Below are positions 17,832-31,531 of a DNA stretch of 39,285 nt, piece by piece. The DNA is taken from the IMG/VR virus record IMGVR_UViG_3300045391_002372. The stretch is one strand, 5' to 3'. Position 1 is the first letter of the stretch. Each line of letters starts with the position of its first letter. The DNA is from a virus. The notes under the pieces were generated by a model that saw only the letters and a program-made list of their open reading frames with translations, was not told where the DNA came from and made no database searches. The translations under genes were made by a program, and so were the position numbers.

Positions 17832-18098
17832 ATGGAACCATTTCAAGTTGAATTTAATGGCGATGAATCAGACGAAAGCCACGGGGGAAACGCTAATTTA
17901 GAATTGTTAATTAAGATCTCAATTATTCTTTTTAGCTCAATACTTGCAATAGCCGTAACACTTGGCTGGAAAGTCGTAGATCACGGCGAGCAGATCTCAG
18001 GCATGAAAGCAACAATAGCTGGAATGGCCGATAGTCTTAATCGCATTGATAGAAATGTAGATAGGCTTGTAAGGCATAAGGATAGCTTTGAACCTTAA
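17832..18098 (+). CDS. Single-TMD membrane protein (88 aa), holin/antiholin-like
   Basis: Strong SD ctaggag 17817-17823. Acidic N-terminus, TMD LLIKISIILFSSILAIAVTLGW, charged C-terminus. Confidence 0.5.
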   Translation: MEPFQVEFNGDESDESHGGNANLELLIKISIILFSSILAIAVTLGWKVVDHGEQISGMKATIAGMADSLNRIDRNVDRLVRHKDSFEP

Positions 18099-18477
18099 CT
18101 TAAAACGAATAGCAAGTTTACCCGATGCCATGCTTGGGATCTTGCTGTTTGATGGAAGGCCGCATTTTACAACGCTTGAATTACCTTGGAAGAATAACGA
18201 GCATAATGTCTCATGCATTCCGGCTGGTAACTATGACATTCAACGAATCAGATCGCCTAAGTTTGGAGAGACTTTTGAGGTTGTAAGCGTACCGGGACGC
18301 TCGGGCATATTATTCCATTGTGGAAATTCGGCCACGGACTCAACGGGCTGCATACTTTTGGGCATGCAATTTTCATTTCTACCCGGACGGCCTGAGATTC
18401 TTTACAGCAAAAACGCCCACGATTGGACCATGCGGTACTTGTTCGGCACAGATAGGGCAACGCTAAAGATTGAATAA
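18088..18477 (+). CDS. DUF5675-like protein with a YkuD-type H...S-x-G-C motif (129 aa; the alternative start ATG 18130 is plausible)
   Basis: TTLELPWKNNEHNVSCIPAGNY...ILFHCGNSATDSTGCILLG matches my recollection of DUF5675. It also matches the HxG...SxGC(I/V) catalytic signature of L,D-transpeptidase-fold enzymes. Confidence 0.5.
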   Translation: MNLNLKRIASLPDAMLGILLFDGRPHFTTLELPWKNNEHNVSCIPAGNYDIQRIRSPKFGETFEVVSVPGRSGILFHCGNSATDSTGCILLGMQFSFLPGRPEILYSKNAHDWTMRYLFGTDRATLKIE

Positions 18478-19360
18478 ATGGATACTCGCGCTCTTTGCGC
18501 TTGTATTTATAGCGGCACCATTAAAAGCACAGCCGGTTTGCGTTTCTTACTTTGCATCGGAAGCTTTTAGTACTTCGCAATGCAAAGAAGCACTGAAGGT
18601 ATTTGATGGCGTGCGTCATCCCTGCATGGCGACATTGTGGGGAACGTTTGGCAGGCACGGGCCAGATGGTTGTACGGCGCATTTTCTGCGCAAGTTTGGC
18701 GGGCGCAAACATACATTAGAGATTCAATTTGAAAACTGGTCAGGCCGTAGGCGTCATGCATTAAAACAGGGCGAATTATTCCCGACGTTCGGTGTCAGTC
18801 AGTACGTTAGAAAAATAGAGCTTAAAGATACGTTAGTCATTGCTCGCATACGTGCACGCGCAGAAGCTATCGCTAAATTCCTAAGCGAACAGGCAAGCGA
18901 GAACGCAGAGATCATAGTTACTACAGGGCTTGAAGATAATCTTTCTAATCGAGCCTATCGAATTGTTTTAGCAGAACTAAAAAAAACTTTACCGGCCAAC
19001 GTGTTGTTAGCCAGGAACCCTGAGGGCGCAGATGAGAAAAATCATAGTTTTGATGGTGCTGACTTTGCAGAGCTGCATACCGTATCCGCCAAATTTAACC
19101 AGCCCGGAAAATGTATTGTCAGTCTCGACGGACAGGACATCGATTTTACAAACAGCCGACGGGAAGACAACCGTAACGTACGATATGCCAGTTTGTTTAA
19201 TCAAATCCGCAGATACAGAGCGCGTCACTGTTACTTCATCCTCTGGTGGGCAGCCGTCCAAGGCAAGCAGTCTATTAACCCTCGCAGCCGGTCTTTTAGC
19301 TTTAGTAGTAAAAATATTTCTTTAATTAATTTATTGCTTAGGAGATTTTCACATGAGTGA
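18470..19360 (+). CDS. Secreted or membrane-anchored protein (296 aa), function unknown; possible exported hydrolase
   Basis: N-terminal MNKWILALFALVFIAAPLKA-QP signal-like segment; TTG start overlapping the previous stop. The last ~100 codons overlap an ORF in another frame. Confidence 0.5.
   Translation: MNKWILALFALVFIAAPLKAQPVCVSYFASEAFSTSQCKEALKVFDGVRHPCMATLWGTFGRHGPDGCTAHFLRKFGGRKHTLEIQFENWSGRRRHALKQGELFPTFGVSQYVRKIELKDTLVIARIRARAEAIAKFLSEQASENAEIIVTTGLEDNLSNRAYRIVLAELKKTLPANVLLARNPEGADEKNHSFDGADFAELHTVSAKFNQPGKCIVSLDGQDIDFTNSRREDNRNVRYASLFNQIRRYRARHCYFILWWAAVQGKQSINPRSRSFSFSSKNISLINLLLRRFSHE
19032..19325 (+). CDS. Embedded lipoprotein with a C-terminal TMD (97 aa), unimolecular-spanin-like architecture
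   Basis: GAGGG SD 5 nt before ATG 19032. MRKIIVLMVLTLQSC fits the lipobox pattern, and the C-terminal LLTLAAGLLALVVKIFL is hydrophobic up to the stop. It lies entirely in the +1 frame of 18470..19360. Confidence 0.5.
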   Translation: MRKIIVLMVLTLQSCIPYPPNLTSPENVLSVSTDRTSILQTADGKTTVTYDMPVCLIKSADTERVTVTSSSGGQPSKASSLLTLAAGLLALVVKIFL

Positions 19361-19604
19361 CATTAAAGATTTAGTAATCAATTGGATTTTCACGAAGATT
19401 CCGCTGCTTAGTTTGCTCGATGGTTATAAGACAAAGATAGGCGAGCTACTGGCGTTTCTTTCAGCACTCGATCTTTTATTGCTGCATTACTTCCCTACGT
19501 TGCCATATGTAAACCAAATTGACGGCTGGGTAGTTTTACTATCCGGGCTTGCAGTTCGTTACCTTGGGATCGCCCATGCTGATGCTAAGGAGAATTTAAA
19601 GTGA
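19353..19604 (+). CDS. Two-TMD small membrane protein (83 aa), class II holin-like
   Basis: Strong SD cttaggag 19337-19344. Hydrophobic segments ELLAFLSALDLLLLHYF and GWVVLLSGLAVRYLGI, with a charged C-terminus. Confidence 0.5.
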   Translation: MSDIKDLVINWIFTKIPLLSLLDGYKTKIGELLAFLSALDLLLLHYFPTLPYVNQIDGWVVLLSGLAVRYLGIAHADAKENLK

Positions 19605-23718: not shown

Positions 23719-24238
23719 ACAGCAACCCAAACAAGAAGACTCGCTAGAGTCGCTAAAATTTCCCTCACATAACCTAACGCCGCTACGGTTTCACTCCAAA
23801 TCAGAAGCCGTAATAGCTCAACTATTCGAGCGCTATATTCCCGGCTGGCGCGCAACCATGGGCGATACAATTCAAATTCCAATCGGCAAAAAGTCAGTTG
23901 ATTTTCTGATCGGTGACTGCTTCATTGAATACCATCCAATCACGATAAAACACGATCTTAAATCTTGGCGGGCATCTGAGATATTTAGCCGCATGTATCG
24001 AGAGCTTAAGGGACATAAGCGCGACACGTTTGTGGAGATGCTCACAGAAGAATTAGGCGCTCAATACTTTCACCGTAGGCGGCAATTGATTGACTCATCC
24101 CCTGAGTTTAAAGGACACGATCTATTACTTTGCTGCAATTCGTTTGATGTTTATAAGATGGCCATAAAACGCTTCTCAGATACGCCGCCTAGATGGGCTA
24201 CGTTTAGGGCTGAATGGGAGGAGTTGCAGAGGAGTTAG
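23708..24238 (+). CDS. PD-(D/E)xK nuclease-like protein (176 aa)
   Basis: FHSKSEAVIAQLF...KKSVDFLIGDCFIEYHP fits the S-x-x-E ... (P)DF ... (I/V)E-x-(K/H) layout of restriction-endonuclease-fold proteins. TTG start. Confidence 0.4.
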   Translation: MNPEQQPKQEDSLESLKFPSHNLTPLRFHSKSEAVIAQLFERYIPGWRATMGDTIQIPIGKKSVDFLIGDCFIEYHPITIKHDLKSWRASEIFSRMYRELKGHKRDTFVEMLTEELGAQYFHRRRQLIDSSPEFKGHDLLLCCNSFDVYKMAIKRFSDTPPRWATFRAEWEELQRS

Positions 24239-24645
24239 GCTTTCTCTGGCTTATCCTCGAACGGTCCGTGCAATACCTCGTATTGAATCCCATTCGTATC
24301 AGCGCCCAATATTCTTAATCGTAGCTTACGAAATGAAATCTCTTTTGACGCGGCTATATCGTAAGTTAAATCTTGATTGAAGGCAGGTCGCGCCATTGAA
24401 TAGCTACCCCCCGCAGAGCTGCTTCCATACTCCCTATATTGAATCCTAACGACCGATCCGGTCATGCCCGAATATACCAATTCGTGATCCATGCTTGTGG
24501 CTACTAAAACTTGATAGCTGCTTTCGTGCCAATTAATTAATGGCTCGCCAATATTCGCATGCAATGGCGCATTCAGCGCATATTCGAACTTCTGCGAGGT
24601 GCAGCCAGCCAGCGCGATCAAAATCGCTAATATTAGTTTCTTCAT
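24235..24645 (-). CDS. Lipoprotein (136 aa), candidate lysogenic-conversion or superinfection-exclusion factor
   Basis: MKKLILAILIALAGC is a canonical lipobox. It is co-oriented with and directly downstream of the repressor gene. Confidence 0.7.
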   Translation of the reverse strand: MKKLILAILIALAGCTSQKFEYALNAPLHANIGEPLINWHESSYQVLVATSMDHELVYSGMTGSVVRIQYREYGSSSAGGSYSMARPAFNQDLTYDIAASKEISFRKLRLRILGADTNGIQYEVLHGPFEDKPEKA

Positions 24646-24653
24646 ATTGCTTC

Positions 24654-24920
24654 CTATTTTATTTCGTCGATACGTCTTTTAATTCTCTTTTTCCTTTCCG
24701 TCTCAGCTTCAACCTTTAATCGACTCCAAAACTCACTAACGCTCAAACCCGATAACTCCTGAAGTCTCACAAGCATTAATTCGCGCGTTGATATTGGCAA
24801 TTTCTCGTAGTGCGCTAATTGCGTCGGTGTAATTCCAAGCTCAGCGGCCATCTTGTAGCTAGTCCAACCTAGCGATTTCTTTATTGATTTTATAATTTCC
24901 ACATTTACATTAGAGGCCAT
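24654..24920 (-). CDS. XRE-family HTH repressor (88 aa from ATG at 24920; track start 24935 is TTG)
   Basis: SLGWTSYKMAAELGITPTQLAHYEK is an XRE/Cro-CI type helix-turn-helix. It is divergent from the early operon. Confidence 0.7.
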   Translation of the reverse strand: MASNVNVEIIKSIKKSLGWTSYKMAAELGITPTQLAHYEKLPISTRELMLVRLQELSGLSVSEFWSRLKVEAETERKKRIKRRIDEIK

Positions 24921-24962
24921 ATTTCTATTTCTCAAAATAATACATTTTCTGCATTAAAGTTC

Positions 24963-25379: not shown

Positions 25380-26159
25380 ATGACTAAGGAGCTAATAACC
25401 ACAAACGGCGCAGGTTTGGACTTCACATCGAAGGAGGTGATCCAAACGCTTAAGGCAACAGTGGCGCAGGGCCTTAATGACCCTGAATTTGCGCTGTTTG
25501 CAGAGCACTGCAAGGCGACGGGACTAAACCCGTTTAAAAAGGAAGTATGGGCAATCAAGGCAGGGGGGCGGCTGCAGATCATGACCGGGCTAAATGGTTA
25601 CCTTTCAATTGCAAACTCACACCCTCAATTCGACGGTATGGAAATTGAAGTCGATAACGACGACAAGCCAACCAAGGCCACATGCCGCGTATACCGCAAG
25701 GACCGCAAATATCCGGCTGTTGGGGTGGCGCTCCTTAAAGAGTACGGCAAATCAACGCCCATATGGCAGCAAATGCCGCGTGTGATGCTAACCAAGGTAG
25801 CTAAATCTATCGCGCTGCGTGAGGCATTCCCGCAAGAGTTAAACGGCACCTATACAGCAGAAGAAATGCCGCCTGAGTATTCAGAACCAAAAGCGCAACG
25901 GCCAACGGTAACAACAGCCGATCAGCTTCCGGCCTCTGTCGCTAACGACCCGCTCCCTAAATTCGAAGACGAGGATCAAACCCCGGTAGAAATCCCGGCT
26001 TATCCTTACGATCTCTCCGAAGCGTCACCGGAAGAGAAGCCAAAATATGAACGGATGCTGCAGAAGGTAGGCGCTACCTGGGACGACGATCAATTGGTTT
26101 GGTTGTCGCCTAAGAGAGTTTCAAATCTGAAAGCGTTTTTGGTGGAGATGCCAGCATGA
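25380..26159 (+). CDS. recT: RecT-family single-strand annealing recombinase (259 aa)
   Basis: GLNPFKKEVWAIK...LNGYLSIANSHPQFDG...MPRVMLTKVAKSIALREAFPQELNG matches conserved RecT blocks. Confidence 0.75.
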   Translation: MTKELITTNGAGLDFTSKEVIQTLKATVAQGLNDPEFALFAEHCKATGLNPFKKEVWAIKAGGRLQIMTGLNGYLSIANSHPQFDGMEIEVDNDDKPTKATCRVYRKDRKYPAVGVALLKEYGKSTPIWQQMPRVMLTKVAKSIALREAFPQELNGTYTAEEMPPEYSEPKAQRPTVTTADQLPASVANDPLPKFEDEDQTPVEIPAYPYDLSEASPEEKPKYERMLQKVGATWDDDQLVWLSPKRVSNLKAFLVEMPA

Positions 26160-27150: not shown

Positions 27151-27438
27151 ATGGAAATGATAAAGAAGGTTCCGGGCTACGATCGTTTCGAATCAGTGAT
27201 GCTGTGGGTAGTGCTAACGGTGGCAGGGTTTGCCATTAGCGCAGCGCTAACCGGCTGTCTTGGTCCTGCAGTATTAGGACTTAAAAGCTACACGGGATCG
27301 GATGGTAGCAGAATGGATTTTATTACCGGTGCAGATTTTAATATCGGCGCTAACGGAGTTGATAGAGTTGAGAACCAGCGCGGTATTCAGCCAAGTCAAA
27401 ACGGCGGGATGATTCGGGCTTCAAGAAAGGGTGAATAA
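27151..27438 (+). CDS. Putative lipoprotein or membrane protein (95 aa)
   Basis: Hydrophobic VMLWVVLTVAGFAISAALTGC with an LTGC lipobox-like motif. Confidence 0.5.
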   Translation: MEMIKKVPGYDRFESVMLWVVLTVAGFAISAALTGCLGPAVLGLKSYTGSDGSRMDFITGADFNIGANGVDRVENQRGIQPSQNGGMIRASRKGE

Positions 27439-27439
27439 T

Positions 27440-27661
27440 ATGAAAGGGTACTTATTAGGCTTTATACTTGGCCATATGCTCGTTACTTCTGCGCTGTTTT
27501 ACTGGAATATGTACAGCTATGACACGCAGGGAAAAGTGCTGCATATTGGCTGGATTGAGCATCATGAGCTATCGGACCTCGATATTGTGCATCAGGTGGC
27601 TATGGTTATGAACGGATTGGACGAACATGATCCGCGATTAACTGCGCCGCTTAGGAAATGA
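27440..27661 (+). CDS. Small N-terminal-TMD protein (73 aa from ATG 27440; track start 27431 is GTG)
   Basis: YLLGFILGHMLVTSALFYW is hydrophobic; aaggg SD before 27440. Confidence 0.45.
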   Translation: MKGYLLGFILGHMLVTSALFYWNMYSYDTQGKVLHIGWIEHHELSDLDIVHQVAMVMNGLDEHDPRLTAPLRK

Positions 27662-30237: not shown

Positions 30238-30593
30238 AAACACTCACCGATGACAACGGGCGACACCATTTCGCAGCTACCGAAAAGGAAAGCTTTTACT
30301 ATGAAAAATCCATGATCGAGCAAGGGTTGGGGCGCTGCATCGGGATGAGCACGCACGGGCGGGTAATTGAATATTACGACCGGCTAGAAAAGCTCACGCC
30401 GATCGCATGGAAACGCTACGAGTGGATCGAGCCAGACGGTGAGCGCAAGGGCGGGAAGATTGCAACGTTTGGGCGCATTGACGACATCGACGATGCGAGG
30501 AGAGCACTTCAGTTTTATAAAGATCGCGGCCAATTTTACGGCGGGAATTTCTTACCCGAAACGGCAGCGCATTTTCAGGATGGGGAGTTGTGA
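30234..30593 (+). CDS. Hypothetical protein (119 aa), translationally coupled to the ligase gene
   Basis: ATGA overlap upstream and GTGA overlap downstream. Confidence 0.55.
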   Translation: MKTLTDDNGRHHFAATEKESFYYEKSMIEQGLGRCIGMSTHGRVIEYYDRLEKLTPIAWKRYEWIEPDGERKGGKIATFGRIDDIDDARRALQFYKDRGQFYGGNFLPETAAHFQDGEL

Positions 30594-31531
30594 GCGAAGA
30601 ATTACCGATAACTACCAGTTGGCACAGCTACCCGAAGCTCTTTGCGCTTGGGCAATCGATCATAGCTAAAATCTTTATGGATCCCGTGACGGTCGAAGAA
30701 AAGATCGATGGCTCACAATTTTCATGGGGCATTTTTGGCGGCGAGCTTAAATGCCGATCTAAAGGCGCTGTTTTAAATATTCTAGCACCTGAAAAAATGT
30801 TTATGGCTGCGGTCGATACAGCGAAGCGATTAGCCGAAGCCGGTTCATTAAAAGAGGGCTGGACCTACCGCGCGGAATATTTAGCGAAGCCAAAGCACAA
30901 CACGCTGGCCTATGAACGAATCCCGCGACAGCACTTAATCGGCTTTGATATCAATACGGGTCATGAACATTACATGAGCCATGAAGAAAAGGCTGCGGAG
31001 TTTGACCGCCTCGGCCTTGATTGTGTCCCGCTGCTTCATTTTGGAGTGGTCGAATCGCACGCGATGTTTAGATCCTTTCTAGATAAGATCTCAATTCTTG
31101 GCGCCCAAAAAATCGAAGGTGTTGTAGTGAAAAACTATTCACGCTTCGGGCCTGACGGTAAAGCCATGATGGGCAAATTTGTCTCGGAGGAATTTAAAGA
31201 AGTTCACGGAGCGGACTGGAAAGAACGCAATCCGGAACAAAACGACATAATCCTTAAAATCGTAAACGAATATAAAACGCCCGCTAGATGGCGCAAGGCA
31301 ATTCAACACGCGAAGGAAGCCGGAAAACTTGAAAATTCCCCACGTGATATTTCATTACTGCTTAAAGAGATTGGCATTGATACACACGCGGAATGCGCGG
31401 GGGAAATAAAAGACAAAATATTTTCTTGGGCATGGCCGAAGATTGCTCGCGGAATAAGCATGGGTTTTCCTGAGTGGTACAAAGAGGAGCTTTTAAAGAG
31501 CGCATTCAATGACGAAGCAAGAGGAGAGTAG
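30590..31531 (+). CDS. ATP-dependent ligase of the covalent nucleotidyltransferase superfamily, RNA-ligase-like (313 aa)
   Basis: Motif I EEKIDGSQ (KxDG), motif III-like YRAEYL, motif IV EGVVVKN, motif V-like GKFVSEEF, in the correct order and spacing. Confidence 0.6.
   Translation: MSEELPITTSWHSYPKLFALGQSIIAKIFMDPVTVEEKIDGSQFSWGIFGGELKCRSKGAVLNILAPEKMFMAAVDTAKRLAEAGSLKEGWTYRAEYLAKPKHNTLAYERIPRQHLIGFDINTGHEHYMSHEEKAAEFDRLGLDCVPLLHFGVVESHAMFRSFLDKISILGAQKIEGVVVKNYSRFGPDGKAMMGKFVSEEFKEVHGADWKERNPEQNDIILKIVNEYKTPARWRKAIQHAKEAGKLENSPRDISLLLKEIGIDTHAECAGEIKDKIFSWAWPKIARGISMGFPEWYKEELLKSAFNDEARGE

Follow-up and report, generated by a model that had tools for sequence, protein, structure and literature searches.

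A conserved gene for a predicted lipoprotein of u-spanin-like architecture, embedded in the gene of a predicted secreted TIM-barrel protein in a poorly charted phage

We analyzed a stretch of viral DNA of 39,285 nucleotides (nt), the IMG/VR record IMGVR_UViG_3300045391_002372 (hereafter the window), in which a short open reading frame (ORF), the inner ORF, is embedded in another frame of a longer gene, the outer gene. A sequence-only reading of the window had proposed that the inner ORF encodes a unimolecular spanin (u-spanin) nested in an unrelated gene of the lysis cassette. The coordinates agree with this layout: the inner ORF lies wholly within the outer gene (18470..19360), its frame is the +1 frame of the latter ((19032 - 18470) mod 3 = 1), and it ends 35 nt short of the outer stop codon. 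Its ATG is preceded, as that reading had stated, by GAGGG at a spacing of 5 nt, and purine runs resembling a Shine-Dalgarno (SD) sequence stand before the inner start codon in most homologues. The product of 97 amino acids (aa) is present in the ORF list with the claimed termini, MRKIIVLMVLTLQSC at the N-terminus and LLTLAAGLLALVVKIFL at the C-terminus, directly before the stop codon. Coordinates of all features are collected in Table 1.

The N-terminus of the inner protein satisfies the PROSITE rule PS51257 for lipoprotein signals, with a Lys or Arg residue in the n-region, the lipobox LQSC and the lipid-accepting Cys15. The basic n-region and the L-Q-S-C lipobox of the sequence-only reading were thereby recovered. 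A single-sequence AlphaFold2 (AF2) model of low confidence (pLDDT 51.6) contains helices at both ends, including residues 78-96, and a few short strands, and has no helix between residues 13 and 77. These few strands fall short of confirming the beta-rich middle segment of the sequence-only reading. Several inner residues are read from bases that encode conserved residues of the outer protein. The Cys15 codon is made from the codons of the invariant outer residues E201-L202-H203, the S-C of the lipobox being readable from GAG-CTG-CAY of outer E-L-H, and an inner S-G-G is dictated by outer L-W-W. The second cysteine, Cys55, persists despite variation of the outer residues encoded there (L/M/V, then F/P/D/S/H/L). 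The inner protein has no homologue among 5.8 billion predicted proteins and no sequence match in Pfam, PHROG or PDB, and no gene caller reports such a protein. An antisense ORF of 84 aa (19007-19261, minus strand) also overlaps the inner region; it is without distinguishing features and is probably a chance ORF.

Homologues of the outer protein were found in metagenomes, the DNA was retrieved for them, and the embedded frame was then inspected. This DNA-level inspection covered 22 of the ~1,100 lineages of the outer family. Thirteen loci carry the inner ORF (the window, L001, L002, L006, L009, L017, L019, L021 and L029-L033; hereafter carriers), and L003-5, L007, L010 and L018 are extra copies of L002, L006 and L009. 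The nine non-carriers are L008, L011, L012, L014-16, L020, L022 and L023. A neighbour-joining tree places ten carriers in one clade (the main clade) and the remaining three, L019, L021 and L033 (the second clade), nearer to the non-carriers, the topology being weak at this divergence.

All 13 carriers possess a stop-free +1 ORF at the homologous place, at outer-protein identities to the window from 57% down to ~27%. The homologous stretch contains no +1-frame stop codon in any carrier, whereas the nine non-carriers, which are more distant outer homologues, have from two to six. In each carrier ORF, the start codon leads into a signal region that is hydrophobic. The lipobox is LQSC, LSSC, MSSC, FTGC, TVSC or IVSC, and its Cys is invariant (13/13). 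The core pattern of PS51257 is found in all carriers, and the full rule is satisfied from some start codon in 12 of the 13. The +2 residue after the lipid-modified Cys is I, T, A or S, never Asp, in every carrier, the sorting rule being that of E. coli, which may not be that of the host. The second Cys is likewise invariant among the 13 inner proteins. A hydrophobic helix with the consensus LLSLAAGILGFILKTFL reaches within 0-2 residues of the stop codon in each of them.

Each inner codon has an outer wobble base in its middle position, so that the hydrophobicity of the inner protein is written almost wholly in the 'silent' sites of the outer gene. Synonymous recoding of the outer gene is therefore an apt null model, and it was applied at 8 of the 13 loci with the codon usage of each locus and 5000 recodings per locus. 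The inner frame remains open in 0-13% of recodings (P(stop-free) = 0.13 for the window), and the lipobox Cys arises in 7-48% (P 0.07-0.48). Hydrophobicity of the two termini is seldom matched, and that of the C-terminus is well above the null in every lineage (P 0-0.036). The features occur jointly in none of the 5000 recodings at any of the eight loci.

Pairwise codon alignments within the main clade give the same picture. At third positions of the outer gene, divergence drops from 0.59-0.77 outside the overlap to 0.33-0.55 within it, a suppression that is significant in 35 of the 36 pairs (Fisher p < 0.05, down to 1e-8). Identity in the inner frame amounts to 0.27-0.48 between main-clade lineages, compared with 0.14-0.23 expected under constraint on the outer frame only. 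The observed value was reached by none of 300 simulations in 35 of the 36 pairs and by one of 300 in the remaining pair. Inner identity often equals or exceeds outer identity across the same bases. The compared lineages are not near-identical copies, the identity of their outer proteins in the overlap region being 0.26-0.53. Two checks that the sequence-only reading had named, suppressed synonymous variation in the overlap and conservation of the Cys and of the hydrophobic C-terminal tail in homologues, thus both spoke for the inner ORF. We conclude that it is, with near certainty, a genuine gene and that purifying selection acts on both frames.

The outer family is broad, with copies in bacterial metagenome-assembled genomes (MAGs) and the nine non-carriers among its members, while the inner protein is without relatives elsewhere. 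Such a distribution is the mark of a gene overprinted on an older one, with both frames constrained in the overlap and the older, outer frame more widely distributed. No separate spanin gene was found beside the outer homologues without the embedded ORF in L011 and L012, which gives no support to a complementary distribution of embedded and separate spanins.

The embedded ORFs of the second clade keep the lipobox on E-L-H (TVSC or IVSC), one periplasmic Cys and the tail in the same place (…NLAVDLFLFLLPS), which ends in LFLFLLPS. Their middle part is a divergent linker rich in S, T and P. Compared with the main clade, these inner proteins have no similarity above the null imposed by the outer frame, and no significant suppression at third positions was found against the main clade or in the pair L019-L021. 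The second clade could have arisen by fast divergence or by an independent, convergent second birth of an inner gene at the same site.

The outer ORF had been described as turning junk-like exactly over the overlap, and this description did not hold. Its C-terminal third, which corresponds to the overlap, aligns among homologues, carries the invariant residues E201, H203, D220, G221, W259, Q264, G265, P271 and R274, and completes a predicted TIM barrel. AF2 applied to an alignment of seven outer sequences gave a (beta/alpha) barrel with pTM 0.81. In this model the overlap holds strands 199-203 (ELH), 214-218, 223-225 and 254-259 (ILWW) and the last helix, 280-294, and the invariant residues E155/D156, E201 and D220 stand at strand ends. 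Top Foldseek matches of the model are GH29 fucosidases, GH26 and GH5 mannanases and glucanases, GH20, GH71 and GH140. The similarity to these glycoside hydrolases (GH) is modest (TM ~0.5, E 1e-5 to 1e-3), with pyruvate kinase and epimerase barrels interspersed. The best matches in BFVD are uncharacterized proteins of uncultured Caudovirales, and searches of Pfam, PHROG and PDB with the outer sequence gave no match. The N-termini of the outer proteins are typical cleavable signal peptides of the AXA type, ending in LKA, ARA, ASA, AHA or VRA in homologues.

The outer family comprises 1087 clusters at 50% identity (E <= 1e-3), of which 326 are found at E <= 1e-30, and has no Pfam model. In some members from Bdellovibrionota MAGs (L014, L022; P0156, P0158) an N-terminal SGNH/GDSL esterase domain (PF13472) is fused to the barrel, which hints at an acetylated glycan as substrate. 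Another homologue without an embedded ORF, the TIM-barrel protein of L023 (3851-4870), opens with a lipoprotein signal (…LVSLAAC); this enzyme would be tethered to the membrane directly. Taken together, the models and alignments describe the outer protein as a predicted conserved, secreted, enzyme-like TIM barrel, and therefore not as an inner-membrane spanin subunit (i-spanin). The second proposal of the sequence-only reading, that the outer ORF and the inner lipoprotein form an atypical embedded spanin pair, fails on this point: instead of an N-terminal anchor and a coiled coil, the outer protein shows a predicted barrel (pTM as above) behind a cleavable signal peptide.

In the window and related loci, the order of genes is conserved: tail or tail-fibre genes, a small protein with one transmembrane domain (TMD), the endolysin, and the TIM-barrel gene with the inner ORF. 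A small protein with one or two TMDs is encoded directly 3' of the outer gene wherever the contig extends that far. The cassette sits between tail and tail-fibre genes. The endolysin slot is occupied by a DUF5675 protein in the window, L001, L002, L019, L021 and L033, and by a Phage_lysozyme or T4-lysozyme-like protein in the other 7 of the 13 carriers (Pfam matches in L006 and L029-L032, sequence resemblance only in L009 and L017). This exchange of non-homologous muralytic genes at one position identifies the locus as a lysis cassette. It is also indirect evidence that DUF5675 acts as an endolysin here. The DUF5675 family has been grouped structurally with C82 peptidases as a candidate lysin (bioRxiv 10.64898/2026.04.11.717860). 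In the window, L001 and L002, the TMD of the upstream small protein is N-proximal and a helical region forms its C-terminal part. The same slot encodes, in L006 and L029-L032, proteins of other families and topology, with a soluble N-terminal part and a C-terminal TMD. The counterpart of the downstream hydrophobic protein is 40% identical in L029, and that in L006 has a weak match to Phage_holin_10. This downstream protein was also considered as an i-spanin and set aside as too short.

Table 1. Features of the embedded gene, its host gene and the surrounding cassette (positions are those of the window unless another locus is named)
Feature	Position	Strand	Basis
Inner gene, +1 frame; u-spanin-like lipoprotein precursor with hydrophobic C-terminal helix, 97 aa	19032..19325	+	ORF list, homologous embedded ORFs, selection tests
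GAGGG, SD-like	19022..19026	+	5-nt spacer to inner ATG at 19032; read from sequence
Lipoprotein signal peptide MRKIIVLMVLTLQS and lipobox Cys15 (codon 19074-19076)	19032..19076	+	PS51257 rule
Invariant Cys55 codon, residue predicted periplasmic	19194..19196	+	Alignment of 13 inner proteins
C-terminal hydrophobic helix LLTLAAGLLALVVKIFL and stop codon; candidate inner-membrane anchor or membrane-inserting segment	19272..19325	+	Hydrophobicity, AF2 helix
Outer gene, 296-aa predicted secreted protein; TTG start, cleavable signal peptide, TIM-barrel/glycoside-hydrolase-like fold, unannotated family	18470..19360	+	Homologues, AF2, Foldseek; overlaps both neighbours by 8 nt (end of upstream gene, start of downstream gene)
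DUF5675 protein, candidate endolysin (C82-like peptidase fold)	18088..18477	+	Pfam PF18925, E 3e-27; 8-nt overlap with outer start
88-aa protein, one TMD and C-terminal helical region; holin candidate, less likely i-spanin-like partner	17832..18098	+	TMD layout, position
83-aa hydrophobic protein, holin candidate	19353..19604	+	Start overlaps outer end by 8 nt
Embedded ORFs of the second clade	L019 1943-2251; L021 1954-2271; L033 4009-4317		Features in same register
Lysozymes in the endolysin slot	L006 4414-4860; L029 3091-3504; L030 786-1217; L031 2011-2415; L032 3052-3504		Pfam match
Upstream-slot proteins with C-terminal TMD	L006 4190-4417; L029 2728-3054; L030 484-786; L031 1679-1984; L032 2781-3065		TMD layout

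A u-spanin is defined by an N-terminal outer-membrane lipoprotein signal together with a membrane segment at the C-terminus in the product of a lysis-cassette gene (Kongari et al. 2018, PMC6139136). The architecture of the inner protein fits this definition, its C-terminal segment being a marginal TMD, and we count the fit in favour of a u-spanin-like reading. The lipobox signal follows PS51257, the +2 residue is not Asp (by the E. coli rule, with the reservation on the host given above), and the gene is flanked directly by an endolysin gene (upstream) and by the gene of a small TMD protein (downstream). The interpretation that we favour, and hold to be moderately probable, is a u-spanin-like disruptor of the outer membrane overprinted on an enzyme gene, with lipoprotein processing, a two-membrane topology and a role in lysis all predicted. 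The inner gene would be translated from its own SD sequence and ATG, and export of its product would be followed by lipid modification at Cys15. With Ile instead of Asp at +2, sorting would lead to the outer membrane. A segment of ~64 residues would then lie in the periplasm, where the invariant Cys could give a disulphide-linked dimer; cysteines form covalent dimers in two-component spanins (PMC6139136). The C-terminal helix of 17 residues would stay in the inner membrane or insert into it later. Once the endolysin had removed the peptidoglycan, the protein could draw both membranes together and break the outer one, as in the membrane-joining model proposed for u-spanins (PMC6139136). In the second clade, the S/T/P-rich middle with termini and Cys kept fits a tether better than a folded binding domain.

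A number of observations weigh against this interpretation, several of them concerning the tail. It is at most 17 residues long and is not followed by a basic cytoplasmic tail; its only Lys stands four residues from the end. Its Kyte-Doolittle hydrophobicity (KD17) is 1.3-2.5, compared with 3.16 for the TMD of T1 gp11, and its crude Hessa sum is -1.1 to +6.7 kcal/mol, compared with -5.6 for the latter. In some lineages Asp or Asn occurs inside it. The invariant periplasmic Cys of the inner family is found in none of the 58 catalogued u-spanins (PMC6139136). The inner protein stands outside all Pfam and PHROG families and shows no similarity in sequence to T1 gp11, a comparison not extended one by one to the other 12 families of u-spanins; as far as compared (T1 gp11, Pfam, PHROG), its family is thus without homology to a described u-spanin family. 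The ~64 periplasmic residues can span the periplasm only if almost fully extended, and the diderm envelope of the host is itself something that we infer.

The hydrophobicity of the tail is limited by its overlap with a conserved motif of the outer protein, PRxRxFxI..DI..VN..LR, and selection clearly pushes it upward despite this motif. Possible roles of the tail are those of a marginal stop-transfer anchor, of a segment akin to a fusion peptide or, to judge by its AAGxLG motif, of an oligomerization helix. Of the C-terminal TMD claimed by the sequence-only reading, then, a hydrophobic helix under selection stands, but it has at most 17 residues and no cytoplasmic tail, and it is much less hydrophobic than that of gp11. 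In the same way, the proposal of a u-spanin nested in an unrelated lysis-cassette gene holds for a nested gene of lipoprotein-plus-hydrophobic-tail type, open and conserved in 13 loci, while strict membership in the u-spanins is unproven, the TMD being marginal and the invariant periplasmic Cys unusual.

A more far-reaching proposal, which we offer only tentatively, is a two-in-one module for lysis of the outer envelope, made of a TIM-barrel hydrolase of an undescribed family and a minimal membrane-fusing or membrane-inserting spanin overprinted on it de novo. In such a module the tail would not be a pre-anchored TMD and would insert only after the removal of peptidoglycan. The lipoprotein might then work together with the enzyme, on whose invariant E-L-H strand its lipobox is built.

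Among the alternatives to the u-spanin-like interpretation, the one that survives best, though we consider it unlikely, takes the inner protein for an outer-membrane lipoprotein that serves the enzyme by anchoring, inhibiting, localizing or holding it latent, or that has a role outside lysis such as superinfection exclusion. Through the embedding, joint inheritance and expression of the two proteins would be assured. The strict linkage of the inner gene is to the outer gene, from which its position in the cassette follows. Moreover, a hydrolase that is synthesized ahead of holin triggering and exported by Sec would plausibly have to be held in check, and the hydrophobicity of the tail is too weak for a confident TMD. 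A role in exclusion would suit the location of the cassette between tail and tail-fibre genes, since exclusion lipoproteins are reportedly encoded near such genes in some phages, as is T5 Llp. However, many barrel homologues lack the inner ORF, two of them phage-borne (L011 and L012/13), and therefore the enzyme does not need the inner protein. The decay of the periplasmic part to a linker in the second clade, with the termini kept, is unlike a folded inhibitor, and the strongly selected hydrophobic C-terminal helix has no obvious role in inhibition.

It is quite improbable that the inner protein is the outer-membrane subunit (o-spanin) of a two-component system, with the upstream one-TMD protein as its i-spanin and the C-terminal helix as a subunit interface. 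This model would account for the marginal tail and for the invariant periplasmic Cys, which is typical of two-component spanins and not of u-spanins. In the window the proposed partner has an N-proximal TMD followed by ~40 helical residues, a type II layout in miniature that is also seen in L001 and L002. On the other hand, the proteins upstream are not one family, and their TMD is C-terminal in L006 and L029-L032, where the tail LLSLAAGILGFILKTFL is nevertheless conserved. A periplasmic part of ~40 residues is also very short for an i-spanin, and the slot upstream of the endolysin is the usual position of a holin.

The explanation of the inner ORF as an open frame that arose by chance, or as a side effect of the amino-acid composition and codon usage of the outer gene, is essentially refuted. 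The outer frame does force some inner residues (the S-G-G and the S-C of the lipobox), the frame of the window on its own stays open in 13% of recodings, and no gene caller has ever reported the ORF; yet the features never occurred jointly in recodings, inner identity is about double the outer-only expectation, third-position divergence is lowered only inside the overlap, and the frame is interrupted in the non-carriers. A sequencing error or programmed frameshift, by which the real product would be the N-terminal part of the outer protein fused to the inner frame, would suit the earlier impression of a degenerate outer frame, but it is refuted by the conserved C-terminal third that completes the barrel, by the recurrence of the two-frame layout in 13 independent assemblies and by the start codon and signal peptide that the inner frame has of its own in every lineage.

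Among known systems, the closest in architecture is T1 gp11, the u-spanin prototype (PMC6139136; AY216660, CPTT1_069). Like the inner protein, gp11 has an N-terminal outer-membrane lipoprotein signal with a non-Asp +2 residue, a hydrophobic helix at the C-terminus and a periplasmic part without a coiled coil (for the inner protein, by the AF2 model of low confidence), and its gene (T1 gene 11) directly follows the endolysin gene in the lysis cassette. The two differ in that the inner gene, instead of being free-standing, is wholly nested in an unrelated enzyme-like gene, of which it uses the +1 frame, and in length (97 aa against 133 aa). In addition, gp11 has a strongly hydrophobic TMD followed by RKHEKKEA, whereas the marginal inner tail ends at the stop codon.

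The layout of the genes resembles that of lambda Rz/Rz1, where a lipoprotein gene with its own start also lies wholly in the +1 frame of a gene of the lysis cassette. Rz1 shares with the inner protein a periplasmic Cys and the fact that it is routinely missed by gene callers. Unlike Rz, the outer protein described here is no i-spanin but a predicted barrel with a signal peptide, and Rz1 is without the hydrophobic C-terminal helix that the inner protein has. The inner protein thus appears u-spanin-like in architecture and gene position, in an arrangement that corresponds to Rz1 in Rz with an enzyme-like host gene.

Overprinted lysis genes are known from gene E inside gene D of phiX174 and from the lysis gene L of MS2-like single-stranded RNA coliphages. 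As is proposed for the present locus, a lysis-related membrane protein has there been overprinted on an older, unrelated gene whose frame is more widely spread. In contrast to the inner protein, they are no lipoproteins but the single-gene lysis proteins of tiny genomes, whereas the genome described here is that of a tailed phage of ~39 kb that already possesses a full holin/endolysin cassette. For the outer gene, a parallel is offered by LysB of mycobacteriophages (cited in PMC6139136), also an extra secreted hydrolase-like protein of the lysis cassette that may target an outer layer of the envelope. LysB proteins are esterases unrelated to the TIM-barrel protein, which is itself enzyme-like by its predicted fold.

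None of the 58 u-spanins catalogued by Kongari et al. (PMC6139136) is described as embedded, and in our full-text searches of the literature no u-spanin was reported to be nested in, or overprinted on, a different gene. The inner gene adds a conserved coding gene to a group of phages in which callers annotate none, and it indicates that spanin-type lipoprotein genes can nest in genes other than that of an i-spanin partner. About 13% of phages have been classed as spanin-less (Kongari et al. 2018, PMC6139136); therefore, some of them may hide spanins in enzyme genes, where annotation misses them. If functional, a compact two-ended protein of this kind (97 aa, ~64 periplasmic residues, a tail of 17 residues) would narrow down the minimal requirements for disruption of the outer membrane. 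The locus also offers a well-dated birth of a gene by overprinting on an enzyme gene, with ancestor-like homologues without the new frame at hand. Finally, it draws attention to a large secreted TIM-barrel family (~1,100 clusters) that phage lysis cassettes regularly include.

The window, which is the entire 39,285-bp contig recorded for protein P0001, belongs to a very poorly charted phage lineage. When the region, one large ORF and the outer protein were compared with 50,697 INPHARED phages by blastn and tblastn, no match was obtained. The few Pfam matches in the window comprise RecT (25380-26159), an RNA ligase (30590-31531) and DUF5675.

Two other ORFs of the window with lipobox-like sequences were considered as the 'real' spanin of the phage and rejected. 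The first (24235-24645, minus strand) encodes a clear lipoprotein of 136 aa (MKKLILAILIALAGC…) next to a helix-turn-helix (HTH) Xre-like, repressor-like gene (24654-24935, minus strand). By sequence and position it looks like a moron of the lysogeny module, for example a superinfection-exclusion candidate, and it lies outside the lysis cassette. The second (27151-27438, plus strand) encodes 95 aa, of which Cys36 (numbering from the ATG at 27151) closes a lipobox-like LTGC, and also stands outside the lysis cassette, in the early/recombination region. It overlaps by 8 nt an ORF for a protein of 76 aa with an N-terminal TMD (27431-27661, plus strand), and the two may form a separate, two-component spanin-like pair.

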